In this document: positions 13,977 through 52,354 of the stretch, piece by piece
How the letters are laid out: each line of letters begins with the position of its first letter
Numbering within the stretch: the stretch's first letter is position 1
Virus record (IMG/VR): IMGVR_UViG_3300017613_002264
Location: 1 to 64,000 of that record
DNA: 64,000 nt
Source of the DNA: a virus
Reading direction: 5' to 3' (one strand)
Notes under the pieces: model-generated
The model's input: the letters and a program-made list of their open reading frames with translations, nothing else
What the model was told of the DNA's origin: nothing
Databases searched by the model: none
Program-made: the position numbers and the translations under genes

Positions 13977-14022
13977 ATGAGAAAAGGCAATACGCTGAGG
14001 CCGCGTGGAAAGGGGTTAGATA

Positions 14023-14556: not shown

Positions 14557-15108
14557 TTACCATCTTTGAAATATCTTTTTCTCATGATAGATATGATAGA
14601 CATATAAGCCGGGCATACGGTAGTGAGCATACCCAGCCCGGCTTAATGCTTGCGAGTATTTATTATCGACACCGAGTAGTCTTCTTCTGCTTTCATCAAA
14701 TCCGCCACATTTCTTCCATGCAGTTTTATTTGTGAGAATCCAGAAGCCACTCATCGCCCCGAGACATCGTTCTACTTTATTTCCATATCGATTATACAAT
14801 GCCTTAGCATATAGACAATGCTCTTCGATGTCGTGAGACATTGGTGCGCCTTCCGCCTTTTGGTGAGGATTTCCGATACGGTTAGTTACCGCGGATATCC
14901 AGCCGGTATCTCTTCCCACTTGAGTAATAGCGGCTATACTCATTTGATACCAGTGAGGATTACATAAAAAGATATCGTGGTCGATGAACAGAACCCATTC
15001 CGATGTCGCTCGATCCATACCTCTATTATAAGCCGACGCAAGCTTACTATTGATATCGTAAGCAATCATTACCTGTATTGGTTCAGCGGTATTTTTTGTT
15101 TTACTCAT
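14557..15108 (-). CDS. glycosyltransferase family 2-like (GT-A)
   Basis: ..VMIAYDINSKLASAYNRGMDRATSEWVLFIDHDIFL.. shows a DxD-type DHD motif, followed by ..GGFDES... Confidence 0.55.
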   Translation of the reverse strand: MSKTKNTAEPIQVMIAYDINSKLASAYNRGMDRATSEWVLFIDHDIFLCNPHWYQMSIAAITQVGRDTGWISAVTNRIGNPHQKAEGAPMSHDIEEHCLYAKALYNRYGNKVERCLGAMSGFWILTNKTAWKKCGGFDESRRRLLGVDNKYSQALSRAGYAHYRMPGLYVYHIYHEKKIFQRW

Positions 15109-15775
15109 CTACTCTAGGCCCTCCAGTTATAGTTGGATCGATAAAAGAGATATCCTCAATTTCTTTTCCAATGAAATCAGAGACACTTTTCGCTGTCTTC
15201 CTTGTGTTATGAATAAGATCATGGAAGGCGACCATTTTGTGTCTTAACCCTGTCACTTCAATATTAGTAAAGAGACTAGAATTATATCTACCAGCCAATT
15301 CTTCAAACTGCCCCTCATATTTCTCTTTGTTACCCCTTGCCTTCATTGAGTTAGAAACTTCTCTCACTGGTCGCACCATAAAAATGAGACGAATTGAATC
15401 AGTTAAACTTACCTCACGAATGACACTCCACCAACTGAGTAAAGTCAAATTAGTTCTCGGGTCTTTCCATCCCCAATACTTATACTGACCGAACTCAGCG
15501 ACCAGTCTTTTCATGGCCTGCCTGTGATGTATGTCGTCCGTGGGTTTAATATGAGGCATGTCTGGATCGAATGATTTTACTTTATACCCGCTGTCTCCGA
15601 GTATTTTATCGTTGATCCTTCTAAATCTTACATTCTCATAAAACCCGAGAGGATTTTCTCTCATCGGCGGTGGATACCAGTCTTCAGGCTTCCCCATGAC
15701 AATACCATTTCCGTGTAACATTCCGGCCATTGCAGACGTTCCGCTTCGATGCATACCGCAAACAATAATAATCAT
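15101..15775 (-). CDS. sulfotransferase family protein
   Basis: N-terminal IIIVCGMHRSGTSAMAG is a PAPS 5'-phosphosulfate-binding-loop type motif. WGWKDPR and FMVRPVREVSNS blocks are also present. Confidence 0.65.
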   Translation of the reverse strand: MIIIVCGMHRSGTSAMAGMLHGNGIVMGKPEDWYPPPMRENPLGFYENVRFRRINDKILGDSGYKVKSFDPDMPHIKPTDDIHHRQAMKRLVAEFGQYKYWGWKDPRTNLTLLSWWSVIREVSLTDSIRLIFMVRPVREVSNSMKARGNKEKYEGQFEELAGRYNSSLFTNIEVTGLRHKMVAFHDLIHNTRKTAKSVSDFIGKEIEDISFIDPTITGGPRVDE

Positions 15776-20495: not shown

Positions 20496-21427
20496 ATACT
20501 CCTCTCAATTCTTCTTATCACCTTGGAATTAATGTCTCCAAAGCAAGTAGGACACAAACCTTTCTTCTTGATTAATTTTATGAACTCATTTTTCAACTTC
20601 TCTTTCCGTCTGCCCAATTGTATCTTCTCCATACTATCGAAAATAAAGGAGCCGAGTACATCGATATCATCATTTAATTCGTTGATCTGGTCATCTAGAT
20701 TGCCATATAGCACCATTTTACCATCCAATGTACGGATGGTACGTTTGAACATATTTAATTGAGATGAGTATTCCTTATAATCTGCTATGAGTGTTTTAAT
20801 ATCATCCCATTTCTTTACTACTCGGACTCTTTTAGATAAGGTTCTTTTCCCTTCCTTTATTTTGATCGCTGTAGAGTCAACAAACTCAAGGCTTTGCAGT
20901 TCCTTCTTAATACCCTTTATCTCCTCATCGAGAGTCTCTTCTTCTGATTTGAGGTCGTTAATATCCCGGGTCAATGATTGAATCCATTTGTCTACTTTTT
21001 CGGATTTGGTTATTCGGTTGATGGTCTTGGTAATTTCTCCACCAGAAGAAGTAACGAGGAAAGGCGGATCTAATTGGGATTGAATATTGATAGAAGACAT
21101 TCTGAGAACTTGAGTAACTTCCTCAGGAACTTTTGTGCCAAACTTTCTGAACTTCCTTTTATTTACGTAGTAGATTCTCTCGGTAGGTGTCTTCTTTATT
21201 TTGACCGTGTTTCCTTCATAAGTTTTTACGGTAACAGAAGTAGTATTCTCTCCATGTCTCACAAACCGACCGCCTGATGGTCGATTATTAATAACCAACC
21301 CGAGTGCCCGTAGAATGGCGGTCTTACCGGCTTGCGTCCTACCTACAATAAAATTAACTCCCTTGGTCAATCTGATAATAGTCTTCTTATGACTTTGAAA
21401 GTTTTTTATAACGATGCTTTTTAACAT
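20492..21427 (-). CDS. sbcC: SbcC/Rad50-like ATPase, N-terminal half ending in a CxxC hook-like motif
   Basis: MLKSIVIKNFQSH.., GRTQAGKT (Walker A) and a long coiled-coil. CPTC lies 16 aa before the stop. There is no Walker B or signature motif. Confidence 0.7.
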   Translation of the reverse strand: MLKSIVIKNFQSHKKTIIRLTKGVNFIVGRTQAGKTAILRALGLVINNRPSGGRFVRHGENTTSVTVKTYEGNTVKIKKTPTERIYYVNKRKFRKFGTKVPEEVTQVLRMSSINIQSQLDPPFLVTSSGGEITKTINRITKSEKVDKWIQSLTRDINDLKSEEETLDEEIKGIKKELQSLEFVDSTAIKIKEGKRTLSKRVRVVKKWDDIKTLIADYKEYSSQLNMFKRTIRTLDGKMVLYGNLDDQINELNDDIDVLGSFIFDSMEKIQLGRRKEKLKNEFIKLIKKKGLCPTCFGDINSKVIRRIERSI

Positions 21428-37852: not shown

Positions 37853-39207
37853 CCTTCTCGATAATACACTGCCAACCTTTGAATGGTATGCTCCGCCAAA
37901 TACCGGTACGGGTCAAGGAAGTCTACTACTTCTACTTGTGACTTCTCATCCGTAACCCTAAAACCTCGCCCGATAGCTTGCAATGTCATTATCTCAGATT
38001 TTCCTCCGCAGGCATTTACTACTACGTCAAGCGAAGGTATGTTAATACCCTCACGCCAGACAGCAGTAGATATTACTACTTTTATTTTTTTACTACTCAA
38101 GGCCACCTTTGTCTCCTTGCGTAATACCGACGCCGTTGACCCCTGTACAAATGCAACCTTTACTCGAGCCCGCCTGAGTAGACTTCTTAATATGTCGCCA
38201 TGATCGATATCTTTGATCATTATCAATACCGACTTTTGTTGTTCTACTCGGTTATGGACTATTTGAACTATGCTCCCATTTCTTACCCTACTATTTACGA
38301 TCCCATGAGTATAAAGGTCTCGGTACTTATGATATTGACCGACCATCTTAGTTCTAGCAACCGGAACCAAAGTGATTTTGGGCTCTGCTAATACTTTACT
38401 CTTTATTCCTTCCTTAGTTGTGTACTCATACAATACTGGCCCGATGATTCCCTCAAGTGCCAACTTCTCTTTTCTACCTTCTGGCAGGGTCGCCGTGAAT
38501 CCCAATTTTACAGGAGCCAACATGCTTTGAACTACTTCTCCGAATTGGCAACTCCTCGAGTTTACATGGTGGCACTCATCTACTATCACCATACCGAAGT
38601 AGTCTGAGTAATCCATCGCATTTATTTTTGAAAAAGATTGGATGGTAGACATTATTATATCAGCATTATGATCAATTACTCTACTCATCCCTCCGCCTAT
38701 AATTTGAGGACGCAAGTGTGCCATGTGAATTTGGGATTCTTCAACCATTTGAGCGAGTAGATCTTTGGTATTGCATAGGAATAAAATAGGAGTATTACGA
38801 AAGACAGAACAAGCCGCCAAAATTATGAACGTCTTGCCTGAGCCGGTAGGTGAGAGGATTACTCCTCTTTGTGAAAAGATTATCCTGCGGAGTGATTTGG
38901 TTTGGTACTTTCTAAGAACGATATCCAAATCGTATTTTGAATGTCTCAATTTCTCAATGGGGTTTTTACTCACTGAGTATTTGATCCTTCTTTTATTGAG
39001 GTACTTCTTAACCTTTGGTAGTAGTCCAGTAAGGAACAACCCAGACCGCTTATCTATAAAGGATCTGGTTTTGATACTACTCTTTGTACCGAAGGCCGCG
39101 GCCCGAGTTACAGTTTCCTTAAAGGAAAGGCATTTGTAAATCTCGGACCGCAGGCTTTTGTCGGCGCGACAGTGTACGGTGTCTAGTATTTCTATTTTCG
39201 ATTTCAT
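37840..39207 (-). CDS. superfamily-2 DEAD/DEAH-box helicase
   Basis: LSPTGSGKTF (I), VIVDECHH (II), GFTATLP (III) and QAIGRGFR (VI). Confidence 0.85.
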   Translation of the reverse strand: MKSKIEILDTVHCRADKSLRSEIYKCLSFKETVTRAAAFGTKSSIKTRSFIDKRSGLFLTGLLPKVKKYLNKRRIKYSVSKNPIEKLRHSKYDLDIVLRKYQTKSLRRIIFSQRGVILSPTGSGKTFIILAACSVFRNTPILFLCNTKDLLAQMVEESQIHMAHLRPQIIGGGMSRVIDHNADIIMSTIQSFSKINAMDYSDYFGMVIVDECHHVNSRSCQFGEVVQSMLAPVKLGFTATLPEGRKEKLALEGIIGPVLYEYTTKEGIKSKVLAEPKITLVPVARTKMVGQYHKYRDLYTHGIVNSRVRNGSIVQIVHNRVEQQKSVLIMIKDIDHGDILRSLLRRARVKVAFVQGSTASVLRKETKVALSSKKIKVVISTAVWREGINIPSLDVVVNACGGKSEIMTLQAIGRGFRVTDEKSQVEVVDFLDPYRYLAEHTIQRLAVYYREGWIK

Positions 39208-39658: not shown

Positions 39659-40168
39659 TCATGACGCCCTCCTTAAACGCTTAGGTTTTTTAAGGGACGT
39701 TCTACTAATTACTCTTTTTGGTTTTACGGATTTACTTATTTTTTTCAACTTCTTTGTAGCGGGTTTTCTCGTTAACTTCTTCGTTTTCTTTTTCCTCGTC
39801 AAAGCCTTTGTAGTCGGGGCCTTGGCGAAATGTTCTTCGGAATAACGAATTACTCTATCAATATGAAAATGTTGTCGGTCGCAACTACTACATTTTAATT
39901 TTTTAAATGTTTCCATCATGCCACTTGAACGTCTATTCTCGCACTCATTGAGTGTTATCCAATACTCACACTCATCGCACCAGAACCATTTGGCAGGGCG
40001 GAACTTCTTGCAACCTTTGTCTCTACTATCGACCCATTTGGCTTTAGGTCTACAATACCGTAATACTTTTTTAGGGTCTCGGATCTTTGCTTTTTTATGA
40101 CCGACACAATACCGACAAAATAATGTACTCGGTTTTACTTCAATTTTCCCTCTACTGATTTGTTTCAT
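39659..40168 (-). CDS. hypothetical Cys-rich protein with basic tail
   Basis: 169 aa with several CxxC pairs and a K/R-rich C-terminus. First gene downstream of hairpin copy 1. Confidence 0.45.
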   Translation of the reverse strand: MKQISRGKIEVKPSTLFCRYCVGHKKAKIRDPKKVLRYCRPKAKWVDSRDKGCKKFRPAKWFWCDECEYWITLNECENRRSSGMMETFKKLKCSSCDRQHFHIDRVIRYSEEHFAKAPTTKALTRKKKTKKLTRKPATKKLKKISKSVKPKRVISRTSLKKPKRLRRAS

Positions 40169-40221
40169 GTTTCCTCCTCGGTCTAAATTGTTAATATAAA
40201 ACTACTACATAAGTATAATCT

Positions 40222-40264
40222 CCAATGAGTACTACGAATGATTACTCACTCGTAGTACCGATGA
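40222..40264 (-). repeat. intergenic hairpin element, copy 1
   Basis: + strand: CCAATGA GTACTACGA atgattactcac TCGTAGTAC CGATGA. Lies 3 nt downstream of the stop at 40268. Confidence 0.9.
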
Positions 40265-40267
40265 TAA

Positions 40268-40510
40268 TTATACCTCAACTACTCGGCCCTGATGATCATC
40301 ACCATAAAACCCTCGAATAACTTCACGGTAGCAAATGTCTATCATCCGTTCAGCTTCTTCCTTTGTCTCATACTCATAAGGTTTTTCGTCTTTACCATTG
40401 GGCTTAATACTCACCCACTCATTGTTCGTGTTAGGTGTCTTCAACTGCATTTGCCATGCCATATAATACCTCCTTACATCCTTATGATATTGATTTCCGC
40501 CATTCCCCAC
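40268..40510 (-). CDS. hypothetical protein
   Basis: 80-aa ORF. The stop is followed 3 nt later by hairpin copy 1. Confidence 0.45.
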   Translation of the reverse strand: MGNGGNQYHKDVRRYYMAWQMQLKTPNTNNEWVSIKPNGKDEKPYEYETKEEAERMIDICYREVIRGFYGDDHQGRVVEV

Positions 40511-40698
40511 TTCTCGGGAACTCCCATTCCTTCAGGAACCGGCTCAATGCATTCCATTCCTACATTGCCACAAACAGTACAAATACAATAAATATCGCCC
40601 CAGTGATTTGTTCCTGTTTCTATTTCATTTCGACAATACTCATTTTTACATCTATAGGGCTTGATTGAGTATTTGCCTGTGACTGGTTTACTCGCCAT
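40474..40698 (-). CDS. hypothetical Cys-rich protein
   Basis: I prefer the ATG at 40698 (MASKPV..), which has GGGAGGTGA upstream, over the track start at 40782. Contains CKNEYC...CICTVC. Confidence 0.4.
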   Translation of the reverse strand: MASKPVTGKYSIKPYRCKNEYCRNEIETGTNHWGDIYCICTVCGNVGMECIEPVPEGMGVPEKWGMAEINIIRM

Positions 40699-41029
40699 CT
40701 TCGTCACCTCCCTGTATACTTTTAATTTTAGGGATAATACAATCCGACGTGTGTTCAGGATTCGCTTCTGTCCATTGACCACAATACCAACATTTATCTG
40801 CGATCAATGAGAAGTTCAAAACCTTATCGAGAATGTCTTCTACTTCGCCAAAGCCTTTCATTTTCAACATCCGATAGGCCTTGTTCGCAAAGTCGAAAAA
40901 CTCCCATTCCGTTTTACTCAGAAAGTTTTGACCATAACGATTAATTTGAAAAGTGTAATAGTCACTGTCATGGGCGACCGCCTTAATAAAACTAAATGGG
41001 TCTTCTACTTGTCGTGCTCTTCTAAACAT
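40688..41029 (-). CDS. hypothetical protein
   Basis: 113-aa ORF with AAGGAGGACAACATG start context downstream of hairpin copy 2. Confidence 0.45.
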   Translation of the reverse strand: MFRRARQVEDPFSFIKAVAHDSDYYTFQINRYGQNFLSKTEWEFFDFANKAYRMLKMKGFGEVEDILDKVLNFSLIADKCWYCGQWTEANPEHTSDCIIPKIKSIQGGDEDGE

Positions 41030-41076
41030 GTTGTCCTCCTTGGTTTAAGTTAACTACTTTACTACTCGGTAAGCCT

Positions 41077-41119
41077 CCAATGAGTACTACGAATGATTAC
41101 TCACTCGTAGTACCGATGA
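41077..41119 (-). repeat. intergenic hairpin element, copy 2
   Basis: Core identical to copy 1. Lies 4 nt downstream of the stop at 41124. Confidence 0.9.
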
Positions 41120-41123
41120 GGGT

Positions 41124-41366
41124 TTACTTCCATGCTTTAGGGATCATCAAGTCTTCCGCCATGTGCATGAACTTTGTTCCTTGTGCGTTCATGAGTATTC
41201 GGCCTTTTGGATTTACTACTTTGTGCGGGCCATAAGCACAACCGACCGAAACATGTTCATCTGTCAGGTATCGGCCTTGTAGAAATACTACATCGCCTTC
41301 TTCTACTTTTTTCCATTTGAGATGTTTGAATCCTTTTACTTTAATCTTCTCACCCATAATACTCAT
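41124..41366 (-). CDS. hypothetical protein
   Basis: 80-aa ORF. The stop is followed 4 nt later by hairpin copy 2. Confidence 0.45.
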   Translation of the reverse strand: MSIMGEKIKVKGFKHLKWKKVEEGDVVFLQGRYLTDEHVSVGCAYGPHKVVNPKGRILMNAQGTKFMHMAEDLMIPKAWK

Positions 41367-41611
41367 CTCCTTTTTGGTACGGGTTGAATGAGGAAATATC
41401 TCCCCTCATTATTATTAAGTGCATAATACCCTTTACTCGGTTTGTCCGGCTCGCCGATGAATATCTCGCCTTCTTCTATCTTTCGTCTTACCAGATTAAT
41501 AACTTCAAATTGATCTAGTTCGGTCTCATACCTTTGATAATACTGAGCCGCGGCAATAAAAGAAACAAAGTACGGCGATCCTGAAATAACCCTTCTACTC
41601 ACTAGTGGCAT
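41363..41611 (-). CDS. hypothetical protein
   Basis: 82-aa ORF with ATGA-type overlap with the next gene. Confidence 0.45.
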   Translation of the reverse strand: MPLVSRRVISGSPYFVSFIAAAQYYQRYETELDQFEVINLVRRKIEEGEIFIGEPDKPSKGYYALNNNEGRYFLIQPVPKRR

Positions 41612-41634
41612 TTTTATTCTCCTTTATAGAGGTT

Positions 41635-41988
41635 TTACCTAGATAATACCATCTCGCCAGTTATATCATTTTCCCACAACTTAGCATCTAGTTCCGCAGA
41701 AACGTAATTAATATCTTTCTGCTCAATACCCCATAAGGCGCAAGCCTCATTTAAAGTAAATCGATCATTTGAAGGGTTTTTATCTACTACTTTACTCAAT
41801 ACGTTTATGAACTCCAACGCCATCGCGGTTGTCATGCAAACAGAAAGATATCTGTCGTTTCCGGTTCTTTGGAACTCCATACGAATCAAGTCAGTTCCTT
41901 CTACTCGATCAATTCTTCCTTCACCCATTTTGTGCATAGGATCTGAGTGAGTAGTCGCAATACCAGTACTGATTTTTTTCACGATCAT
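41635..41988 (-). CDS. hypothetical protein
   Basis: 117-aa ORF with AAGGAGGACAAAATG start context downstream of hairpin copy 3. Confidence 0.45.
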   Translation of the reverse strand: MIVKKISTGIATTHSDPMHKMGEGRIDRVEGTDLIRMEFQRTGNDRYLSVCMTTAMALEFINVLSKVVDKNPSNDRFTLNEACALWGIEQKDINYVSAELDAKLWENDITGEMVLSR

Positions 41989-42035
41989 TTTGTCCTCCTT
42001 GGTTGTGGTTGTTATTGTACTACTTGGTTAAGCCT

Positions 42036-42078
42036 CCAATGAGTACTGCAGACGATTACTCATCTGCAGTACCGATGA
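42036..42078 (-). repeat. intergenic hairpin element, copy 3 (compensated stem)
   Basis: CCAATGA GTACTGCAGA cgattactca TCTGCAGTAC CGATGA. Both arms are changed together. Lies 4 nt downstream of the stop at 42083. Confidence 0.9.
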
Positions 42079-42082
42079 GGGT

Positions 42083-44740
42083 TTAACTCAGTACCGCCTT
42101 GGCGTTCTTCTTAATTGTTTTCGCTATTGAAGGAGTCAGCACCTTGCAAAGATCCTTAAGTTTGGCCTTCGCTATAATACCGATTGTTGTGAATCCCTTA
42201 TTATAAAGAGCAATTGCTCTTTTCCCGCCGACCATTTTGATTTTGGTCAAAGGAACAATTTCCTCGGAAACGCCATACTTAAATCTCAATGGCAATGTCT
42301 CCCAGATTTCACTTTCCCACAAAGCGTATTGAGTATCGATCAATTTGAGTGCTTGATTTATTCGTTGGATATCCCATATCAATTGACGTTGGAGACCCTT
42401 CAAAACATCAGGCACTTTCTCTTTTCCAGTGAGTGAGTAATGTAAAGCAATTGCTCCGCGCACTGAATTAATACTCGGGCGAATATCGAAGTCATTTGTC
42501 ATTGTACTCACAAAGTCACTGACCTCATTATATATTTGTTTTTGTTCGTATGGCAAGGCGTTCATGGGAACGTCGCCAACTGCCCAAGCGAGTAAAGCAT
42601 CATTCGTTTTGTCTACGTTAAAAACTTTATCGAAGTTTTTATACCACGCATAGACATCTGAGGGATGGAAGTAAAGCCAAGCACAGACCCGGCCTAGGCC
42701 GGTCGGGCTTATACGAAGACCATCGCCTTCGATCATTTCCATCTCACTGTATGAATTGAGTAGATGCTCACCTTGTTCTTTACTCATTGAGTTTTCCCCG
42801 GCCTGTAACGATGCCAGACTTCTGCCGTACCATTGGAGAAGTGAAAGGCTATCTTGAATTGTCTTTGTCTCAATTTCGGCAATGACATGGAACGGCATAA
42901 AATTATCTAGCACTGATAATACCGGCCTTGGGTTTGCAAACTTGTCTCGCCATGTAGATGTCTCATATGGCGGGATGAGAAGATAAACAAAACCTTCTTC
43001 GTCAATACCATAACGGCCCGCACGTCCGGCCATTTGTATGATATCAAGTTCGTCTACTTCGTTAATACCACGATGTATTCCTACTATGATAACGTTTCTA
43101 GCAGGAAGGTTTCTTCCCCATGCCAAAGTAGAAGTACTCACAAGAATTCTGATACCATTTTCTCGATCAGAAAACTTTCCTTCTACTTCCAACCTATCGG
43201 CAAGTTCAAGGTCGGCAGAATGAAAGTGAGCATTTTCACCTTCTTCCTGCAACCGCTTGACAAGACGACGGCCGGAACCTTTGTCATGTACGAAGATAAG
43301 GAACTTCTCTTTTGGTTTACTCATTGCAATTGCTATCGATGAATTTATTTTAACTGCCTGAGTTGCCCAGTAATCTTCCTGGCCACTTCCATAATACGCC
43401 GGAGTATACTCAACAAAATTATAATTGAGTTCAACCGGCCGCCATGTAGAAAAGACTACTCGTGTAGCTTTACCGTTCAACTGTTCGAGCCATGTTGCCA
43501 ACTCATTACAGTTGGGCATTGTAGCAGACAAGAAAAGTATTCGCGCCTTTTTATTAATAGAGGTAAATCTCATAATACCGGTCTCAACGGCATGACCTCG
43601 ATCAGTAGTGAGTATATGACTTTCGTCAACTACTACAAGCCCGGTTTGTTTGAGCCAGTAGTTTTTCTCAGACTTCATACGTCGAGTCCTTGAGTCGCAC
43701 ATTTCAGAAGTCATAACAATAATATGAGCATTTGAAAGTTCCTTCATTCGCTTTTCAGATAAAGTATAATCACCAGTGAGTATACTTATATTGTAATCAG
43801 CAAACCGAATCTTCCAATCCTCATATTTTTCCTGAGTCAAGGCCTTGAGTGGAGACAAGTAAATTACTCGCTTACCTTTACTCAAAGTCGCATCCATCAA
43901 TAGCTCCGCACATACAGTTTTACCGGCAGAAGTATTTGCTCCGATTATAAGATTGCCGTCCTCATTTGCATAAGGTAGTACCTCAGACTGAACCGGGTTG
44001 AATTTAGGAAATGAGTATTTGAATGGTTTGTACTTTTTGGTACTAACCAGTTTAATATCATTTGATTCATTTACTACCGGCTCATTGATTATATCCCTCA
44101 TTTCTTCGATGGATCTTCTTTCTTCTTCTTCAGTGAGTATTTCTTCTTCGGCTTCAGTGAGTATTTCTTCTTCGGCCGATCTATCAACCCACTCATCTTT
44201 AAAATAAGGATCATGTTTAAGTACCGTTGCTTCAAAAGTATTACGTCCCTTGGGATTCTTCTCGCCCAATACCCACGCCAACTGTTTATCAGAAAGAGTA
44301 TTACGTTCTTCTACTTGTTCAAGTAGAGAAGTTGCAAACTCAGACCAGTTAACAGCATCATGAGAAAGAATCGCCTTAACGTATGGAATATCAATGTCTA
44401 TAATTTCCAGAATATGGGCTTGATTATAGAACTCATCAATACGAGACTTGAGACGTTCGCCAATTGAAGTGGCTCCTTCTACTCGGAGTATCTTCTTGCC
44501 TTTACCAATAGGTCTATTGTTTACCTTATCCCAAAATACTACTCGGATAGCATCACTGCCAATCCGCCGGGTTACACCGGTTCTAATGTCGATAGTTGAG
44601 TAAACGCGAACGTCTACTTTATCGGAATTACTCGGTGTTTGATAAACAACTTCCTTGCAGTTAGGAACTTCTACTACATAAAAATTACGCGGCAGATGGT
44701 TCTCGAACTGCTCCTGTGTTAGTGTTACGAAGTTACTCAT
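42083..44740 (-). CDS. Ski2/Hel308-like superfamily-2 helicase with unassigned ~230-aa N-terminal extension
   Basis: GANTSAGKT (I), VVDESHIL (II), LSATMPN (III), TSTLAWGRNLPA (V) and MAGRAGRYG (VI). Confidence 0.8.
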   Translation of the reverse strand: MSNFVTLTQEQFENHLPRNFYVVEVPNCKEVVYQTPSNSDKVDVRVYSTIDIRTGVTRRIGSDAIRVVFWDKVNNRPIGKGKKILRVEGATSIGERLKSRIDEFYNQAHILEIIDIDIPYVKAILSHDAVNWSEFATSLLEQVEERNTLSDKQLAWVLGEKNPKGRNTFEATVLKHDPYFKDEWVDRSAEEEILTEAEEEILTEEEERRSIEEMRDIINEPVVNESNDIKLVSTKKYKPFKYSFPKFNPVQSEVLPYANEDGNLIIGANTSAGKTVCAELLMDATLSKGKRVIYLSPLKALTQEKYEDWKIRFADYNISILTGDYTLSEKRMKELSNAHIIVMTSEMCDSRTRRMKSEKNYWLKQTGLVVVDESHILTTDRGHAVETGIMRFTSINKKARILFLSATMPNCNELATWLEQLNGKATRVVFSTWRPVELNYNFVEYTPAYYGSGQEDYWATQAVKINSSIAIAMSKPKEKFLIFVHDKGSGRRLVKRLQEEGENAHFHSADLELADRLEVEGKFSDRENGIRILVSTSTLAWGRNLPARNVIIVGIHRGINEVDELDIIQMAGRAGRYGIDEEGFVYLLIPPYETSTWRDKFANPRPVLSVLDNFMPFHVIAEIETKTIQDSLSLLQWYGRSLASLQAGENSMSKEQGEHLLNSYSEMEMIEGDGLRISPTGLGRVCAWLYFHPSDVYAWYKNFDKVFNVDKTNDALLAWAVGDVPMNALPYEQKQIYNEVSDFVSTMTNDFDIRPSINSVRGAIALHYSLTGKEKVPDVLKGLQRQLIWDIQRINQALKLIDTQYALWESEIWETLPLRFKYGVSEEIVPLTKIKMVGGKRAIALYNKGFTTIGIIAKAKLKDLCKVLTPSIAKTIKKNAKAVLS
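44129..44176 (-). repeat. perfect 24-bp tandem duplication inside the Ski2-like helicase gene
   Basis: TTCAGTGAGTATTTCTTCTTCGGC twice (44129-44152 and 44153-44176). Encodes AEEEILTE twice. Confidence 0.9.
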
Positions 44741-44807
44741 TTTGTCCTCCTTGTTGTTGTTTTAATTAAACTTCCTCCCAATTATAACGCCTTTCACAAT
44801 TGAATCT

Positions 44808-44850
44808 CCAATGAGTACTACGAGCAATTACTCACTCGTAGTACCGATGA
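44808..44850 (-). repeat. intergenic hairpin element, copy 4
   Basis: CCAATGA GTACTACGA gcaattactcac TCGTAGTAC CGATGA. Lies 8 nt downstream of the stop at 44859. Confidence 0.9.
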
Positions 44851-44858
44851 TGATTCAA

Positions 44859-45248
44859 CTACTCAATATCATCTGTGCTGTGAAAAGATACTCGGTTCCA
44901 CTTCCGAGTAGTCTTCTTCGCCATGCTTTCAAACACGGCATCGCCCAACTCAGAACGGGCCTTGGTATTACTCACTGAAGCAAGCAGACCAAATTTCTTT
45001 GGCCCGACTTTCTTCTTCAGTTTCGCAGGGGAAAGAGTAAAAACATCTACGTCCTCAATTACTACGCATGATTTATTATACCCTTTGATAAACCCCTTTT
45101 CTGTTGCTTCAGCGTGGGTTCTCAAATCAGTTTTGATTTCGTCCAGTCTGGCAGTGAGGTCTTTAATATGGCCGGCGAGTTCCTTGCCTTCCGTAACTAA
45201 TTCTCTCACGCCCCGAATTCGTTTGAGTAATCTTTTTTTCTTAGGCAT
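44859..45248 (-). CDS. hypothetical protein
   Basis: 129-aa ORF whose start overlaps the end of the upstream GGCT gene and which lies just upstream of hairpin copy 4. No named motif. Confidence 0.45.
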   Translation of the reverse strand: MPKKKRLLKRIRGVRELVTEGKELAGHIKDLTARLDEIKTDLRTHAEATEKGFIKGYNKSCVVIEDVDVFTLSPAKLKKKVGPKKFGLLASVSNTKARSELGDAVFESMAKKTTRKWNRVSFHSTDDIE

Positions 45249-45654
45249 TGTTTTGTCTCCTTGTTTCTTTGTTCCATTCCTCTACTACTACAGCATTTTC
45301 AGGAATGGTGAAGTTAAAAACATACGTCCATGCTTTTGTCTCATCTACTACTATCTGGATTCGGTGATAAAAACTACCTTTCAAATCTTCCGGATTGTAT
45401 CCTTCGAGCCTGTCGCACTTTCTCAATGTCTCATCGATATCACTCACTTTCATGAGTTCTCCGATTACTCGATCTTTGCCTTTGGTCAATACCATTGCAG
45501 GGAACGGCCCGAGGTCGAAAAGTCTCGCGCCGAAGAAAATGCTTCTGGTAATTGTCTCAGTCAAGTTTTTCAAAAGGTACTCATAATTTGAAAATCCTTT
45601 TTTGAGCGTGCCATAGACAAAGATGTAGCCTGATTTTTTCTCCTCGTTGTTCAT
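45241..45654 (-). CDS. gamma-glutamylcyclotransferase (GGCT/AIG2-like)
   Basis: YIFVYGTLKKG, GPFPAMV, VIGEL and CDRLEGY. Confidence 0.8.
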   Translation of the reverse strand: MNNEEKKSGYIFVYGTLKKGFSNYEYLLKNLTETITRSIFFGARLFDLGPFPAMVLTKGKDRVIGELMKVSDIDETLRKCDRLEGYNPEDLKGSFYHRIQIVVDETKAWTYVFNFTIPENAVVVEEWNKETRRQNNA

Positions 45655-45700
45655 GTTGTCCTCCTAGTTGTGGTTAATAATGTACTACATGGTTAAATCT

Positions 45701-45742
45701 CCAATGAGTACTACGAGTAATTACTACTCGTAGTACCGATGA
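45701..45742 (-). repeat. intergenic hairpin element, copy 5 (extended stem)
   Basis: CCAATGA GTACTACGAGTA attac TACTCGTAGTAC CGATGA, a 12-bp stem. Lies 4 nt downstream of the stop at 45747. Confidence 0.9.
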
Positions 45743-45746
45743 TGAT

Positions 45747-46301
45747 TTAACTATTTAGAATCGCGTCAATGTCTTCTTGGCGCGGTCTATGGCGAATCAA
45801 CGTATGCTTTGAATGATCCAACTTCGCGAACTGTTTTGGAAATACTCTTTTGAAAAGATTGATTGACCATCTACAGGTCTGTTTCTCATTCTTTCCTAGA
45901 GCATGGCCAAATTCATGTAGAAAAGTAATTATGGAAAGATTACCACTCATAATTATTTCGTGCAACGCCGGGACATAACAACTCGATCCTGACTGGTTCA
46001 TTTTTGTCTCACGCACTGTCGCGTCAAGATCAATACCGCCACCGCTAATACTCGGTACTTCTATATCATACAGTGGTGAAAGTTCCTGAGCGAGTACAGT
46101 GAGACCTTCTAACCTTTGCCGATTTGTTTTACTACCCCATAGTTTTTTATCTCGCCATCGTTTGAGTGCGGGAATTACTCCCAACCGATACTTAATACCA
46201 TCATCGATTGATTCTTCAACCGTTTCAGGGTACGCGTTATCATTACTCATTGATGGAATGATAGATCTAACTATAGCGTCATTGTTTTCTGAATTACTCA
46301 T
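45747..46301 (-). CDS. putative zinc metallopeptidase (HExxH)
   Basis: FLHEFGHALG. I prefer the ATG at 46301, which has AGGAGGACAAAAAATG context, over the track start at 46364. Confidence 0.45.
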   Translation of the reverse strand: MSNSENNDAIVRSIIPSMSNDNAYPETVEESIDDGIKYRLGVIPALKRWRDKKLWGSKTNRQRLEGLTVLAQELSPLYDIEVPSISGGGIDLDATVRETKMNQSGSSCYVPALHEIIMSGNLSIITFLHEFGHALGKNEKQTCRWSINLFKRVFPKQFAKLDHSKHTLIRHRPRQEDIDAILNS

Positions 46302-46350
46302 TTTTTGTCCTCCTATTGGTTGTTGATTTGTTTTGCATACGTTTGATCCT

Positions 46351-46388
46351 CCAATGAGCCCCATGAGTAATACTCATGAGGCCGATGA
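46351..46388 (-). repeat. intergenic hairpin element, copy 6 (different stem, same flanks)
   Basis: CCAATGA GCCCCATGAGTA a TACTCATGAGGC CGATGA. The stem sequence is replaced but still self-complementary, with one mismatch. Confidence 0.8.
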
Positions 46389-46399
46389 TAAATCAAACT

Positions 46400-47917
46400 T
46401 TACTCATTGTACGACCGGCGTCTCCGCCGGGGCAGTGGGTTTCTTCTACTCACTCGATCAGGAACGTTAATACCAACAAGTTCCTCATCGGGTTCTTCTT
46501 CGCCGATTCCTAATTCATAATCGTCATCGTCATCGTCATCGTCATCGTTAGAGGTATTGTGTTCCTGTTGTTCCTCGGCACTTTCATTGAAAGCATAATC
46601 GCCAAGGTTGTCAGGATTTCTACGTCCCTCAAACAATTGAGCACGAGAAAGAAAAAACCGAACGGCTTCGAGTTGTTCATTACTGCAACTACTCATTTCA
46701 ACTTCATGTAGTATTTCTTCTTCAGGTTCTTCTACTACTTCTGGAACTGACCGAGTAATTGGTATTTCTTCAATACCAATAGGGAGAAGTCTGAACTTCT
46801 TACGATTCTTAATAATATTAAAACCGTATCCCCATTTGTTGTTTTTAAGGTTGGTCAATTGGCCTGAGACAAACTTCTTTTGAGCCCCAGTTCTCAATGA
46901 TCCAAACTCCTCATTGAGGGCAGTTACAATTTTCTCTTTTGTAACCCAATCACTCAAAAGCATCCTTACAATCGCACCCGTTTTGGCGTGGACTTTAGGA
47001 GGCTTTTGTTTCTTAGCCTCAGGATGAATAAACTTCTGAGCAAACCTTGACCTAGCAACATACGAATGAGCGGACCTTATAAAGTCTTGTTCGTAATTTG
47101 GCTCATCCGAATCAGAACTACTCGGCGTTGCCCGTTGAAGGGTTCGCCGAACCTGAATAGAACTACTCTTTAAGGCATCAATAAATTCCTTAAAGGTTTT
47201 GGTATTACTGGAAACGACACCACCGCAAAGGGCAATGTCAAGCCAGCGTTGAGTAATCAGGATCCAAGTACTCACTTTAGGCCACTCAACTGTTCCCGAA
47301 TGCAATCGCCATTCGAGCGTATTTCTCATTGAGATGGATCTAAAATTGAGTGAAGATCGCCTATCGCCAATATTGTTTCCGTACCAATAAACTGCTTGAC
47401 TTTGGCACTCGGGAGGGTTTCCCCATTGTCTACAGTAAGTATTACTCAAACGACTATTTGGTAATGCGTAATAGAAAAACTTCTCATCTACTCGCCAAGC
47501 ATTTGCTACTTTTACCAATTGCTCATCTGTGCAACCGCCTACATAATGGTGAACATGAAAGCCACAAGTTCTACTCGCAGTAGCAAATGGAGAACCAAAT
47601 CCATCGTCTAAAGCCTTGCAGACTACTTGTACTGCTTTCATTCCTTCCGTGCCTTTCAATACCGGTGAGACAATCTCCATGTTATATGGAAACTGACTAC
47701 TCATGTTCTCATTGAGTGCAATCACTGACCCGTCAGGCTTGATATGCCAAGTTGACTCATTCGAGGCATCTGTATCATGACCATAGGAGCCGTCGACTAC
47801 TACTTGATGATTAATCATGTTGTCTGAGAAGAATTGTCTAATCCTCTCAGCCATACGATGATCGCCTACGGATGAGTGACACTCAATCTCAATACCGAAA
47901 GTTCGTTCTTCGTTCAT
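46400..47917 (-). CDS. amidoligase (Amidoligase_2 / glutamine-synthetase-like COOH-NH2 ligase family)
   Basis: FGIEIECH, W.IKPDGS, MEIVSPVL.G and CGFHVHHYVGG, as I recall for the family. A long C-terminal extension ends in an acidic-then-basic tail. Confidence 0.7.
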   Translation of the reverse strand: MNEERTFGIEIECHSSVGDHRMAERIRQFFSDNMINHQVVVDGSYGHDTDASNESTWHIKPDGSVIALNENMSSQFPYNMEIVSPVLKGTEGMKAVQVVCKALDDGFGSPFATASRTCGFHVHHYVGGCTDEQLVKVANAWRVDEKFFYYALPNSRLSNTYCRQWGNPPECQSQAVYWYGNNIGDRRSSLNFRSISMRNTLEWRLHSGTVEWPKVSTWILITQRWLDIALCGGVVSSNTKTFKEFIDALKSSSIQVRRTLQRATPSSSDSDEPNYEQDFIRSAHSYVARSRFAQKFIHPEAKKQKPPKVHAKTGAIVRMLLSDWVTKEKIVTALNEEFGSLRTGAQKKFVSGQLTNLKNNKWGYGFNIIKNRKKFRLLPIGIEEIPITRSVPEVVEEPEEEILHEVEMSSCSNEQLEAVRFFLSRAQLFEGRRNPDNLGDYAFNESAEEQQEHNTSNDDDDDDDDDYELGIGEEEPDEELVGINVPDRVSRRNPLPRRRRRSYNE

Positions 47918-47967
47918 TTTGTCCTCCTTGTTGTTATTAAATATTTTCTCCAGTTTAAATCAAATCT

Positions 47968-48010
47968 CCAATGAGTACTACGAGCGATTACTCACTCGTA
48001 GTACCGATGA
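47968..48010 (-). repeat. intergenic hairpin element, copy 7
   Basis: CCAATGA GTACTACGA gcgattactcac TCGTAGTAC CGATGA. Lies 9 nt downstream of the stop at 48020. Confidence 0.9.
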
Positions 48011-48019
48011 TCATTTGAT

Positions 48020-48901
48020 CTACTCACCATGAACTACTCGTTTGGGATTGTTACCGATTGCCGTTGCCGGAGCAGGAACTCCAGTAACGTCAGGGTAATG
48101 CTCAAACTCGTATGTCTCTTCTGCATCATAGTCAACGGGTTCAACTACTTCAATTACCGGATCTTCTTCGTACCGGCCGAGGTTTTTGAACTCGAGTGTA
48201 TTAAGGTCAACGGTGTACATATGTAAAGGCTTAGTGAAAAAAGACTTTACTTTTTTGACCTTAATGTTGGTAAGACCGGCCGCGTTGGTGTATTGGATTG
48301 TATCTTGAACAAGTTGCTTAGTAGAACAAAATACTCGCACGCCCAAGGTCTTTCTCAAATCCATAATGCACATAGGCCGATGAAGGTCACGCGCAAAGAG
48401 TAATTCTCTATTAGCGAAGTTCATTGCCACCATTGAGTAGCATTCAACTTCTGAAAGAATTTCTTTTACGAATCCCTTCTTCTCAACACATCTAAAAAAT
48501 GCTTCCGTATCCGACTCACCCTCAATTTTCGATTTTACTCGATGAGTAGTTGCCAGTTCAAAAGCCTCAGTCATGGTGCCGTTGTGGACTATCGCCCACT
48601 CATCGCCGACATATGGCTGAGTATTTAATGTATTGACCGTACCTACACTCGCGTTCCGGTTGTGGCCGACGAATACTTGACATTGTTTATTTACTACACT
48701 GTCTCGGTAATACTCACTTCTCTCATAGAATTCTGATGCTTTCACCGCCGACTTCTCAGTGATCAATTCTGAATCACTTGTGGCGAAAAAACCAGTTCCA
48801 TCAATTCCCCTTGCTTCGGAAACGACGGCCAGGATTCTCATGAATTTTGCGAGTACATCCGCATTCTTCGGCTTTCCTACATAACCATAGATACCGCACA
48901 T
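48020..48901 (-). CDS. class II (Ntn) glutamine amidotransferase
   Basis: MCGIYGY (N-terminal nucleophile Cys), VGHNRNASVG, IVHNGT and ESDTEAFF. Confidence 0.8.
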   Translation of the reverse strand: MCGIYGYVGKPKNADVLAKFMRILAVVSEARGIDGTGFFATSDSELITEKSAVKASEFYERSEYYRDSVVNKQCQVFVGHNRNASVGTVNTLNTQPYVGDEWAIVHNGTMTEAFELATTHRVKSKIEGESDTEAFFRCVEKKGFVKEILSEVECYSMVAMNFANRELLFARDLHRPMCIMDLRKTLGVRVFCSTKQLVQDTIQYTNAAGLTNIKVKKVKSFFTKPLHMYTVDLNTLEFKNLGRYEEDPVIEVVEPVDYDAEETYEFEHYPDVTGVPAPATAIGNNPKRVVHGE

Positions 48902-48969
48902 ATTGTCCTCCTTTTGCCGAGATAATACTCGGCGTTTATAAAATTAAACTACTACGTACATTCAAGCCT

Positions 48970-49012
48970 CCAATGAGTACTACGAACAACTACTCATTCG
49001 TAGTACCGATGA
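48970..49012 (-). repeat. intergenic hairpin element, copy 8
   Basis: CCAATGA GTACTACGA acaactactcat TCGTAGTAC CGATGA. Lies between IR arm 49026-49054 and the GATase gene. Confidence 0.9.
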
Positions 49013-49025
49013 TAACTTGAATTTG

Positions 49026-49054
49026 ATTAAACAATTTATTTCGAGGGCCGAGTA
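49026..49054. repeat. left arm of inverted repeat bracketing ORF 49060-49326
   Basis: ATTAAACAATTTATTTCGAGGGCCGAGTA. The first 18 nt are a perfect reverse complement of 49350-49367. There are 3 mismatches over 29 nt. Confidence 0.85.
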
Positions 49055-49059
49055 TTTGT

Positions 49060-49326
49060 TTAGGGTCTATTTTTCATATGATAGAAACATACATCTAATT
49101 CTTTACTTTTTGTATGAACCATATTGAATGAGTATTCGAGATTTTCTGCTCCCCAATTCTTAACATGTTTTACTCGTTTGACCGGGCTATCTTTGTCAAC
49201 TACTACATGCACAGGGGAATTGCAATACAGACACTTTTTTGTGATGATATGCGGGCCGTGTTGAATCCGACGCAATACTCGTCGTCGCCTACTTGGTCGT
49301 TGATTTGATCTATATAATCGTCGCAT
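49060..49326 (-). CDS. small basic Cys-containing protein bracketed by a 29-bp inverted repeat
   Basis: 88 aa with an Arg-rich N-terminus and CLYC. Flanked by the IR arms at 49026-49054 and 49339-49367. Confidence 0.45.
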   Translation of the reverse strand: MRRLYRSNQRPSRRRRVLRRIQHGPHIITKKCLYCNSPVHVVVDKDSPVKRVKHVKNWGAENLEYSFNMVHTKSKELDVCFYHMKNRP

Positions 49327-49338
49327 AGATTACTCCTT

Positions 49339-49367
49339 TACTCAGCCGCCGAAATAAATTGTTTAAT
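49339..49367. repeat. right arm of inverted repeat bracketing ORF 49060-49326
   Basis: TACTCAGCCGCCGAAATAAATTGTTTAAT. Two of the three mismatches become G-U pairs only in the minus-sense RNA. Confidence 0.85.
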
Positions 49368-50379
49368 AAATTATAGCAGGCAGTGAGTAGTTCACATTGA
49401 CTTTCCTAGGTCTTAATATGCCCAGTACTATGCAATCCAAACAACCCACTACCCATGCTATAACGGCCTATCCATGAATTACTCATTAGACAATACCAAC
49501 ACGTTTCGCCCTCTAGTATATTTTTATATTGAGACTACTGTATTGGCGGAAATTTAATGAGTAAAACACTTCTAGTACCACGGACTTTATAGGGCCGACT
49601 TTCGTCTTTTCCGCTACCGCGATTCTACTCACTGCGAATTTACTATAGCGGTCAATTTTTCATGCTCAATTTTTAGACATTACTATCATGACCATTGCAT
49701 TTCAATTCGGTACGCCTACAGTGTTTACTCGCCTGCCGTTCCCTAGAGATTTTGGAGGTGCGGGATTATGAACTAAACCACCTAAGGAGGAGGAGGGCGG
49801 TGGATTTATTTTGTCCTAACGGGTTATGGCATTTGATTACTCATTCAGTTGGATGAATTATGCCGTCGGGAGTATCATGTAGGATTTCGTTTTTGAATCG
49901 TGCAACCTTTGTATGTAGTATTTTTCCGCTGATGATCATTCCCTACATACCGAGTAGTAGTTGCCATATACTCGACGTGGCGAATTTTGTTTCATTAAAG
50001 TCTCGCTACCACGATTAATTTTTTATTGGGATATTTAAAACCCCTTCCGACATGGTATTGGATTTCCATTTCGCCTACATCAATTATTAATGTCTACATC
50101 AAAAGACGATGCATCCTATTGCTCAGCGGTTATCAAAATGAGTAGTACTCATTAAGGAATGTTTTCCATACCTAGAAAGCCACCATGTCAGGTGCGGATG
50201 TTTTGAACCGGCCAGCTCCAGAGGGGATTTTGAAAAAATGAGTAAAACAAAATACTCGCAAAAGCCCGTGGGCGGCGGCCCCAACCAAACAACCGAATAT
50301 GTAAAAGAACTCAAAATCAGTGCATTTGTAACATTTTCAGGGACTTAAGTCAACCCCTTTTTTTCATGGGGAAGCCTCC

Positions 50380-50401
50380 AGGCCCAGAGTTGGGCTTTTT
50401 T
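50380..50401 (+). terminator. weak intrinsic-terminator-like hairpin on the + strand inside the ORF-free region
   Basis: AGGCCCA gagt TGGGCTT followed by a T-run (tttttt). The stem is short. Confidence 0.3.
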
Positions 50402-50671
50402 CACTCCTAACACGTTGAATTTATTGCATAAAATAGGGGCAAAATAAATGCAAAAAAAATGAAAAAAAGTGCGTTTTTTACCTTTCTAAGAGCATGATTT
50501 CATTGGGAAAAATGGCGGGTGTAGGTAGGTGATTTTATTAGGGAAAAGGAGTACCACAGGGTAGGGAATTAGCGGAAAATGGGCAAAAAAGGGCGATTTT
50601 AGCGGCTCTACTCATTTTTCGCCCATTTCTGGCCATATATAGCGGAACTACTCATTCGTCAAATAATGGAA

Positions 50672-52201: not shown

Positions 52202-52354
52202 AATACCTCCTTTGAATTAATAGATAACCACGCCTACCCTCAAGATCTTCTACAATGAATGCTAAACAAAATAGACAAGATTCTTGAGGATAGACGCAAC
52301 TACTGCCCGGTTAAGGGTCGTCTACATATTGTCCTCCTATTGTTATGAGTAATA

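Follow-up and report, generated by a model that had tools for sequence, protein, structure and literature searches.

Eight copies of an intercistronic hairpin were found in a 64-kb stretch of viral DNA (positions 1 to 64,000 of the IMG/VR record IMGVR_UViG_3300017613_002264; hereafter the window, whose coordinates are used for the hairpin positions). The structure is that of the sense-strand RNA, it is upheld by compensatory changes in both of its stems, and it stands at gene junctions of a leftward operon, ahead of a conserved ribosome-binding site (RBS) and start codon. Elements of the same build are present in related uncultivated phages, and the arrangement of stems and internal loop resembles that of intercistronic hairpins in the early region of phage T7. 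We lean, if only slightly, towards regarding the eight elements as RNase III-type intercistronic processing and 3'-stabiliser signals placed within a stop-hairpin-RBS linker, a function assigned by analogy with T7.

Eight covarying hairpins in sense-strand RNA

The 10-mer CTCCAATGAG occurs eight times in the window, on the + strand only, with CCGATGA 40-45 nt after each occurrence (Table 1). The same eight copies were returned by a repeat finder (family D2) and by a covariance model built from them, which, with filters off, matched these eight alone, all on the - strand, at 70-89 bits, while the top unrelated match in the window reached 12.5 bits. All eight hairpins are intergenic and are located between 40.2 and 49.0 kb on the transcribed (-) strand, which bears out the earlier note on this DNA in its description of eight intergenic copies sharing one orientation. 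As the genes from ~14.5 to 52.8 kb all point leftward, the transcribed sense is the reverse complement, in which the element reads ..AUCAUCGG, stem-loop-stem, CUCAUUGGAG(A/G). A search of the whole window against Rfam at gathering thresholds gave no matches, and at E-values up to 5 none of the hairpins was matched in the region 40100-49500.

Folding of the eight copies revealed a bipartite hairpin with a full span of 63-74 nt. Its outer helix, or lower stem, is 8-10 bp long and varies in sequence from copy to copy with compensating changes (e.g., GUAUAAU/AUUAUAC, UUGAAUC/GAUUCAA, and AUUCAAG/CUUGAAU). It is followed by a 1x1 mismatch, three invariant core pairs (U.G, C-G, and A-U; UCA:UGG) and, in most copies, a 2x3 asymmetric internal loop (5'-UC / 3'-CAU). 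The upper stem, 12-14 bp in the window, begins with invariant G.U and G-C pairs and usually ends in a GUAA (GNRA) apical loop. The length of ~43 nt given previously was an underestimate, as the compensated lower stem of 8-10 bp had been missed, and what was described as a near-direct repeat in the flanks (TCATCGG/TCATTGG) is really a core whose opposite strands pair in part (UCA:UGG and the 2x3 loop). Folding recovered the stems as previously quoted, both those of copies 1, 2, 4, 5, 7, and 8 and the two that deviate, namely the co-varied one of copy 3 and the unrelated one of copy 6; the upper stem of copy 6 is similar to the upper stems of a related phage contig, L090.

The predicted folding energy of each window copy is -28 to -34 kcal/mol, with z-scores of -5.2 to -7.3. 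In the alignment of the eight copies 94.8% of the cells are paired and both sides have changed in 16 of the 27 pairs, whereas sliding the partners by 1-3 columns as a control lowered the pairing to 29-44%. Addition of three copies from L090 (11 sequences) gave 95.2% paired cells and compensatory changes in 18 of 27 pairs, and an independent MAFFT alignment analyzed with RNAalifold yielded a matching fold (17 of 26 pairs compensatory). The strand is indicated by several observations. First, the 11-sequence alignment contains 47 G.U cells favouring the sense strand versus 5 A.C cells favouring the antisense strand. Second, the sense fold is the more stable one in 16 of 20 elements from three phages. 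Third, the hairpins are on the coding strand throughout in the window, in L090 and in a further relative, L084. Finally, the hairpins are capped by GUAA in the window and by C(UUCG)G in L084, and GNRA and UUCG loops are classic stable RNA tetraloops; the GNRA class is also named in the RNase III literature (PMC1540722). We conclude that the structure is an RNA of the sense strand, with covariation.

The hairpins are joined to the genes on both sides. In six of the eight copies the upstream stop codon is located within the predicted paired stretch, one further copy begins 2 nt past the stop, and copy 8 lies 37 nt beyond the stop of an 88-aa gene; the distance of 3-11 nt past the stop reported previously was revised once the lower stem was counted. 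The lower-stem arm has the loose consensus GUUAAAYC, which carries UAA, and the L084 hairpins show a like arrangement (G-UAA-AAYC). From the end of the lower stem to the next AUG and its RBS-start block there are 30-58 nt of unstructured, A/C-rich (A/U/C-rich) spacer. The block AGGAGGACAAnATG has seven exact occurrences in the window, six of them 3' of hairpins, and copies 1 and 6 are followed by near-variants, in line with the proposal of the earlier note that hairpin, spacer and RBS form one unit. Since a stop in the stem, a hairpin, an A/C-rich spacer and an RBS-start block recur at each copy, the repeated unit is a linker. Separately, a perfect RBS-start block AGGAGGACAATATG with TAG right after it was observed at 52322-52338 (-), with no hairpin near; this start-stop mini-ORF may be what is left of a deleted cassette, or else a start-stop with a regulatory role.

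Stop codons within the paired stretch would also suit translational coupling, in which a ribosome ending at the in-stem stop would melt the lower stem and free the Shine-Dalgarno (SD)-like UUGGAGG, so as to be held for re-initiation at the downstream RBS. Every phage examined does have an SD-like 3' core strand (window, GGAG(G); L084, AAGGG; L087, GGAGG). However, the true RBS, itself very strong, lies the whole spacer further downstream, the upper stem and the 2x3 loop are left without a role, and copy 8 lies 37 nt past its stop; we consider this explanation quite improbable.

Even less credible is a transcription signal, be it a promoter-terminator cassette like the promoter early stem-loops (PeSLs) of T4-type phages, a factor-dependent terminator or a hairpin promoter. 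Such a function would agree with the intergenic position before each gene or gene group and has a formal analogy in the PeSLs (PMC2839356). However, no conserved -35/-10 pair was found: a promoter scan of the hairpin region gave 37 sites versus 41 expected from shuffles, the single match within a copy (copy 4, TGGAGA-18-TATAAT) is at chance level, and manual inspection 16-19 nt past TTGGAG in all eight copies revealed no conserved -10. A terminator scan flagged no copy, and terminator-like sites were no more frequent in the region than in shuffles. There is no U-run after the stem in any of the eight copies, the 3' flank of the upper stem being CUCAUUGG. The previous statement that the element is not a classical intrinsic (Rho-independent) terminator thus holds, and no terminator-like site coincides with any copy. 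None of the window open reading frames (ORFs) scanned was identified as encoding a phage RNA polymerase, an RNase III, an integrase or a transposase. In L084, moreover, sigma-70-like promoter repeats are separate from the hairpins and lie outside the hairpin stretch (see below).

Several known structures were considered and rejected. A hammerhead ribozyme, suggested by CCGAUGA and AAUGAG on the + strand, is inconsistent with the genes and the G.U pattern, which put the RNA on the other strand; GAAA, a three-way junction and an Rfam match are also lacking. The sense strand has no tandem G.A pairs, as a K-turn or box C/D motif would require. The upstream stops are ordinary UAA/UAG (read directly in six copies) and no extended frame follows them, contrary to SECIS or other recoding. 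An N4-type hairpin promoter or a T7-type promoter was discarded given the lack of a phage RNA polymerase in the ORFs scanned. An attenuator based on pairing of a downstream GUAGUA with the 5' arm was rejected as well, as L090 retains GUAGUA despite its different stems.

Related phages and the permutation of gene modules

The operon encodes an 885-aa SF2 helicase, for which 779 homologues, metagenomic in origin, were found at E < 1e-10. Judging from sequence, homologous elements occur at similar junctions in the related uncultivated phages L090 and L084 and, in a looser form, in L086-L089. L090 (helicase identity 63%) has three hairpins in 4.5 kb with an identical core, AUCAUCGG...CUCAUUGGAG, and differing, fully compensated upper stems. 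L084 (60%, syntenic) has eight clear hairpins and one doubtful, with the core UUUAUCGG...CYAUUAAGG, the internal loop UC / UAU or CAU, UUCG apical loops and the RBS block AAAGGGGGACUUAAAnAUG. In L086-L089 (52-55%) we folded 11 long sense-strand hairpins, two to three per locus, some of them with a 2x3 loop; clear UC/YAU 2x3 loops were found in L086 at 8051 (..UUCAAUC-AAGGGG...CCCUUU-CAU-UUGAGG) and in L089 at 2785. No hairpins were found in L074 (41%).

Scans of viral, metagenome and genome contigs for the exact core pattern gave single matches only, at about the chance rate. A scan for the L084-type pattern gave 99 matches; the ~80 of them that were listed were single and mostly chance-like, and included L084's own contig and L109, which carries L084-type elements according to a structural descriptor (see below). 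In L007, a GC-rich viral sequence (same contig as L076), a hairpin at 7960-8029 has the exact core halves UCAUCGG...CUCAUUGGAGG and scores 37.9 bits. It is located directly between a stop and a start codon, and GGAGG is apparently its RBS. Its sequence shares no proteins with the window and has this single hairpin copy; therefore, the match, which may be a chance or a distant occurrence of the motif, is probably due to chance.

Two further kinds of repeat were observed in the relatives. A 54-nt repeat with a sigma-70-like promoter (TTGTCA-17 nt-TATAAT) occurs in L084 at 620-673, 14304-14357, and 20880-20933. All three copies are outside the hairpin stretch, two of them, ~13.7 kb apart, flanking it, which places the hairpins inside a long operon; the repeats probably mark the starts of successive operons. 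A counterpart was not found in the window. In L086 (14981-15078/17882-17979) and L089 (13907-13973/15850-15916), near-identical gene starts are duplicated ~2-3 kb apart, each consisting of an RBS and a glycine-rich N-terminus, MGGTGAGVRGRG....

The comparison of gene content between hairpins, proposed previously as a check on cassette shuffling, showed that modules have been both permuted and replaced between the window and L084. In the order of transcription, the hairpin-bounded modules of the window are glutamine amidotransferase (GATase); amidoligase; 184-aa protein; GGACT with a 129-aa protein; helicase; three ORFans; and three more ORFans. In L084 they are three modules without homologues in the window; the 129-aa homologue; the 184-aa homologue; amidoligase; GATase with an 81-aa protein; helicase; and GGACT. 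The shared genes keep their orientation, their order is permuted, hairpins stand at the junctions, and the modules without detected homologues are not the same in the two phages. The gene order of L090 is that of the window, and in L086, L088, and L089 the helicase junctions are tight and devoid of a hairpin. Lower stems are kept at orthologous junctions (window copy 4 and hairpin L090b share UGAAUC/GAUUCA), whereas upper stems are uniform inside a genome and differ between genomes. Such a combination of junction-conserved lower stems with upper stems uniform per genome is the pattern expected of gene conversion among the copies. As the modules are permuted or replaced and the upper stems homogenised per genome, the linkers probably act also as recombination points, similar to PeSLs, to judge from these sequence comparisons. 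At the DNA level, and as a secondary role, the repeated linkers of ~110-140 bp would provide homology for gene conversion and for module exchange, gain and loss.

Like the window units, the PeSLs of T4-type phages (Arbiol et al. 2010, PMC2839356; Comeau et al. 2014, PMC4122927) are short repeated units that bracket small, often ORFan genes and coincide with insertions, deletions and replacements between related phages, suggesting recombination between repeats. However, a PeSL is defined by a strong sigma-70-like promoter and a terminator stem-loop, and the window units have neither, being instead processing-type hairpins within an operon, joined to an RBS. The idea of a mobile cassette analogous to PeSLs, put forward in the earlier note, is therefore supported by analogy as far as indel and replacement breakpoints between the window and L084 are concerned and fails for the conserved sigma-70-like promoter and the effective terminator.

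Other repeat families invite comparison. The SAS/ESAS elements of Cluster K mycobacteriophages reportedly comprise a conserved RBS and start block before many genes, sometimes preceded by an inverted repeat at a variable distance. They differ from the window units in sequence, phage group and architecture, and no covarying bipartite hairpin with an internal loop is known to have been described for them. The Correia/NEMIS elements of Neisseria and the ERIC elements of enterobacteria are intergenic palindromes co-transcribed with flanking genes into long RNA hairpins; those of Correia/NEMIS are reportedly cleaved by RNase III, with a change in mRNA stability. These families are chromosomal miniature inverted-repeat transposable elements (MITEs) with conserved terminal inverted repeats and target-site duplications, whereas the outer stem of the window element changes from junction to junction, and a stop codon and an RBS go with the element.

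The same comparisons bear on the explanation that the element is at heart a DNA repeat, either a MITE-like palindrome or a recombination site, that spreads, homogenises and shuffles cassettes, its RNA structure being a by-product. The gain, loss and permutation of repeat-bounded modules among relatives, upper stems homogenised per genome with lower stems following the local junction, and the presence or absence of the element at helicase junctions across relatives would all be accounted for, and the lower-stem arms resemble GTTRRRY / RYYYAAC. However, the G.U pairs are nearly all on the sense strand (the 47 versus 5 cells given above), the apical loops are of RNA-type tetraloop classes, the elements are always oriented with transcription, and they are associated with stop codons and RBS blocks; nor was an integrase or transposase found in the ORFs scanned. 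We therefore consider a primarily DNA-level repeat improbable. The integron attC site itself (5'-RYYYAAC...GTTRRRY-3') was rejected, as the arm order is reversed, no integrase is present among the ORFs scanned, and the G.U asymmetry favours RNA.

Likeness to T7 processing signals and a putative mechanism

Families of hairpins processed by RNase III are classical in phage early operons. The T7 sites are not annotated in NC_001604 or V01146, and a literature search gave no usable coordinates; the T7 early intercistronic regions were therefore folded at positions 890, 1468, 3138, 5887, and 6448, which are taken to be those reported by Dunn & Studier 1983 for R0.3, R0.5, R1, R1.1, and R1.3. Folded R0.3, R0.5, R1, and R1.1 show a lower stem, an internal loop of 2 nt (5') and 3 nt (3'), and an upper stem of 9-10 bp. 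The loop is UC/UAU in R0.3, R0.5, and R1.1, and the R1.1 tetraloop folded as GCAA, which agrees with PMC1540722.

A strict descriptor, drawn up independently of the covariance model and demanding 6 or more of 7 lower pairs, 5' UC, 9 or more contiguous upper pairs and 3' YAU, matched five times in the window, always on the - strand, four times in L084, twice in L090, once in L086, and twice in L089 (one match being the hairpin at 2785). Applied to the 7.6-kb T7 early region, it returned exactly the hairpins at the presumed R0.3 and R0.5 sites. Matches in shuffled controls were ~0, and 1.35 Mb of unrelated viral DNA gave two unrelated matches plus two in L109 (background ~0.75 per Mb of strand).

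RNAs cleaved by Escherichia coli RNase III span about two helical turns, internal loops confine the cleavage to one phosphodiester, and the 3' hairpins left behind protect against exonucleases; the T7 early precursor of ~7 kb has five such signals, at which one strand is cleaved and a protective 3' hairpin is left (PMC1540722, PMC3867540). The window elements share positional and structural features with such signals. All eight are intercistronic and on the sense strand of a polycistronic transcript, as are those of L084 and L090. The predicted pairs number 22-32 per element (26-32 in the window and L090, 22-26 in L084), against the at least 20 bp of coaxial double-stranded RNA cited for RNase III (PMC1540722). 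The asymmetric loop is separated from the apex by upper stems of 12-18 bp in the window and the relatives folded, compared with at least 11 bp in signals of the T7 type. Both sets are families of ~60-nt intercistronic hairpins on the sense strand of a long early transcript, beginning at or near the upstream stop codon and composed of a lower stem, a 2/3-nt loop, an upper stem and a stable tetraloop; the loop letters, UC/UAU in three T7 signals, are UC/CAU or UC/UAU in the window clade. The RNase III-type or 3'-stabiliser role named in the earlier note with reference to T7 is, by this analogy, the best-supported reading, given a covarying sense-strand helix of 26-32 bp with a 2x3 loop and at least 12 bp to the apex.

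The two phages are otherwise unrelated, with no sequence homology past the loop letters. The upper stems are longer in the window clade (12-18 versus 9-10 bp), and, unlike T7, the window carries its eight copies within 9 kb and has a conserved RBS-start block fused to every one of them, with module shuffling and within-genome homogenisation seen in its clade; RNase III cleavage, too, is presumed here by analogy.

Should the analogy hold, the following sequence of events may be proposed. The elements would be carried by one long leftward polycistronic transcript running from ~49.4 kb toward the helicase and primase genes. After the upstream ribosome leaves, a coaxial helix of ~27 bp would form and be recognised by host RNase III or a comparable double-strand-specific endonuclease. 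Owing to the internal loop, a single strand would be cut, on the 3' side, in the manner of T7 early mRNA, so that the upstream cistron would keep a protective 3' hairpin and the downstream cistron would be freed with its own leader and RBS. Each gene could then be expressed and decay independently. Cleavage, enzyme and effect on expression are putative steps, modelled on T7.

Several points weigh against this interpretation. Eleven copies from two phages have an invariant core, which can be recognised clade-wide, while RNase III needs no specific sequence; such conservation might instead point to a sequence-specific RNA-binding protein. As the upper stem ranges from 12 to 18 bp, it is the internal loop, not the apex, that any cut has to be measured from. 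The pyrimidine-rich 5' strand of the core and its SD-like 3' strand (GGAG) would also suit a translational role. The T7 coordinates used in the comparison are presumed ones, the sites being annotated in neither T7 record. The hexamer TGAGTA, frequent genome-wide, also stands at the hairpin apex in the window and L090, for which no explanation was found. As to recombination, the permutation of modules could arise without any involvement of the hairpins.

The first of these points leads to an explanation without RNase III, which we regard as unlikely but deserving attention: the element could be a sequence-specific binding site, its invariant internal loop being bound by a dedicated RNA-binding protein of phage or host that governs stability or translation of the cistrons on either side, or a passive stabiliser, stopping 3'-to-5' exonucleases once RNase E or RNase Y has cut in the A/U-rich spacer. 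The invariance in 11 copies of the core letters and the two flanking G.U pairs exceeds the usual need of RNase III, the position right after stop codons fits a 3' protector, and the spacer is unstructured and A/U/C-rich. However, no RNA-binding protein or nuclease was identified among the window ORFs scanned, a passive block would not need the conserved asymmetric loop and lower stem, and the loop geometry and letters coincide with those of T7 hairpins taken to be RNase III signals. RNase III-type processing therefore remains our preferred reading.

Genomic setting and implications

The genes directly after the hairpins are listed in Table 1. The region had been called accessory, which is not purely so: besides several small ORFans it holds the clade-conserved helicase, the GATase, the amidoligase and the GGACT. 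A second helicase, a primase and a DnaB-like helicase are encoded downstream of the hairpin region, and the remaining leftward arm is a replication module (UDG-PolA, a clamp-loader-like ATPase, RecA, a 5'-3' exonuclease, and SbcCD-like proteins), while TerS and the structural genes point rightward. The phage is distant from all GenBank phages: the identity of its DNA polymerase to those of known phages does not exceed 26%, and megablast of the hairpin region against GenBank phages gave no matches.

Table 1. Hairpin copies and the RBS-start blocks and genes that follow them, in the order of transcription
Feature	Position	Strand	CTCCAATGAG start (+ strand)	Bits	Details
Hairpin copy 8 (first transcribed)	48960..49022	-	48968	84.7	lower stem AUUCAAGUU/GCUUGAAU; core AUCAUCGG...CUCAUUGGAG; upper stem 14 bp
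RBS-start block AGGAGGACAATATG	48899..48912	-			class-II glutamine amidotransferase (GATase) gene, 48020-48901 (-)
Hairpin copy 7	47956..48022	-	47966	88.3	amidotransferase stop UAG in 5' arm of lower stem
RBS-start block AGGAGGACAAAATG	47915..47928	-			amidoligase (Amidoligase_2) gene, 46400-47917 (-)
Hairpin copy 6	46335..46403	-	46349	69.9	usual core; differing upper stem GCCUCAUGAGU/ACUCAUGGGGC with one U.G pair
RBS-start block AGGAGGACAAAAAATG	46299..46314	-			184-aa gene, 45747-46301
Hairpin copy 5	45685..45758	-	45699	86.4	folded upper stem 13 bp; UAA stop within lower stem GUUAAAUC/GAUUUAAC
RBS-start block AGGAGGACAACATG	45652..45665	-			GGACT (gamma-glutamyl cyclotransferase-like) gene, 45241-45654 (-)
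Hairpin copy 4	44797..44861	-	44806	88.9	lower stem UUGAAUC/GAUUCAA; UAG stop at base
RBS-start block AGGAGGACAAAATG	44738..44751	-			885-aa SF2 helicase gene, 42083-44740 (-), conserved across clade
Hairpin copy 3	42021..42093	-	42034	82.1	compensated upper stem GUACUGCAGA/UCUGCAGUAC; helicase UAA stop within lower stem GUUAAACC/GGCUUAAC
RBS-start block AGGAGGACAAAATG	41986..41999	-			117-aa ORFan gene, 41635-41988
Hairpin copy 2	41066..41130	-	41075	80.1	lower stem GUAAaCC/GGcUUAC, includes UAA stop
RBS-start block AGGAGGACAACATG	41027..41040	-			113-aa ORFan gene, 40688-41029
Hairpin copy 1 (last transcribed)	40211..40275	-	40220	87.8	lower stem GGUAUAAUU/GAUUAUACU
Variant RBS-start block GAGGAGGAAACATG	40166..40179	-			169-aa gene, 39659-40168

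The trio of GATase, Amidoligase_2 and GGACT (45241-48901) is kept in L084 with a changed order, and the short L090 contig has GGACT only; such a trio is reportedly a predicted phage system of peptide or amide ligation. In the family-A DNA polymerase (26877-29495), an N-terminal domain of the uracil-DNA-glycosylase superfamily is fused to the exonuclease and polymerase domains. Encoded at the end of the structural arm (10738-15775) are a GT1 glycosyltransferase (just under the Pfam cut-off), an NAD-dependent epimerase/dehydratase, a GT2 glycosyltransferase, and a sulfotransferase, and these sugar and sulfate genes may modify the virion or host surface.

The first gene of the hairpin operon (49060-49326) encodes an 88-aa, very basic, Cys/His-containing protein without a family match. 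It is flanked by a 32-nt inverted repeat (49023-49054/49339-49370, 88% complementary), which in RNA would be predicted to form a long-range duplex around the cistron, ending beside its RBS and hairpin 8. The duplex could be an extra double-stranded-RNA target or a translational lock; a counterpart of the repeat was not found in L084. Between the small early genes and the hairpin operon there are ~1.27 kb without a convincing ORF (~49400-50670). This stretch, with its promoter-like sites (e.g., TTGACT-17-TACAAA near 50350-50320, - strand) and with segments that are T-rich or structured, could be a replication origin, a regulatory region or a non-coding RNA region.

By far the most over-represented word of the window is the hexamer TACTCA/TGAGTA (165 and 108 occurrences on the + strand versus ~20 expected each), and TACTC is its commonest pentamer. 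TGAGTA is found on both strands, in every frame that does not create an in-frame stop, and is denser in intergenic DNA; its extended consensus is A(A/G)TGAGTA(A/T)T (e.g., 38964-38982, 48533-48551, and 50140-50160). The hexamer is enriched in L090 and not in L084. In the window TACTC...GAGTA inverted pairs show no enrichment beyond the hairpins, and TGAGTA is not arranged in palindromic pairs. It is possibly a site of DNA modification, nicking or binding.

With the hairpins, a large clade of uncultivated phages so far known through its helicase only gains a structured RNA family that is well supported. The family is not homologous to the classical RNase III hairpins and is absent from Rfam, and it appears, from sequence comparison, to go beyond the T7 precedent in two respects, being fused both to a stop codon and to an RBS block and being associated with module shuffling. 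More speculatively, and with considerable doubt, the units could be self-homogenising "intercistronic linker cassettes", whose UC/CAU core is read by a dedicated factor rather than by generic RNase III, and which serve as portable junctions for the excision, insertion and reordering of genes. If so, RNA-processing signal and gene-shuffling device would be combined in one cassette, and genes would come equipped with stop codon, processing site and RBS.

The PeSL idea of a repeat that is both a regulatory unit and a recombination point would be extended to a different kind of signal. If the parallel with T7 holds, unrelated phages have adopted a UC/YAU loop under a stem of at least 11 bp to split polycistronic mRNAs, which would give sharper rules for single-strand cleavage by RNase III, and the hairpin design could provide compact natural "insulator" parts for synthetic operons.

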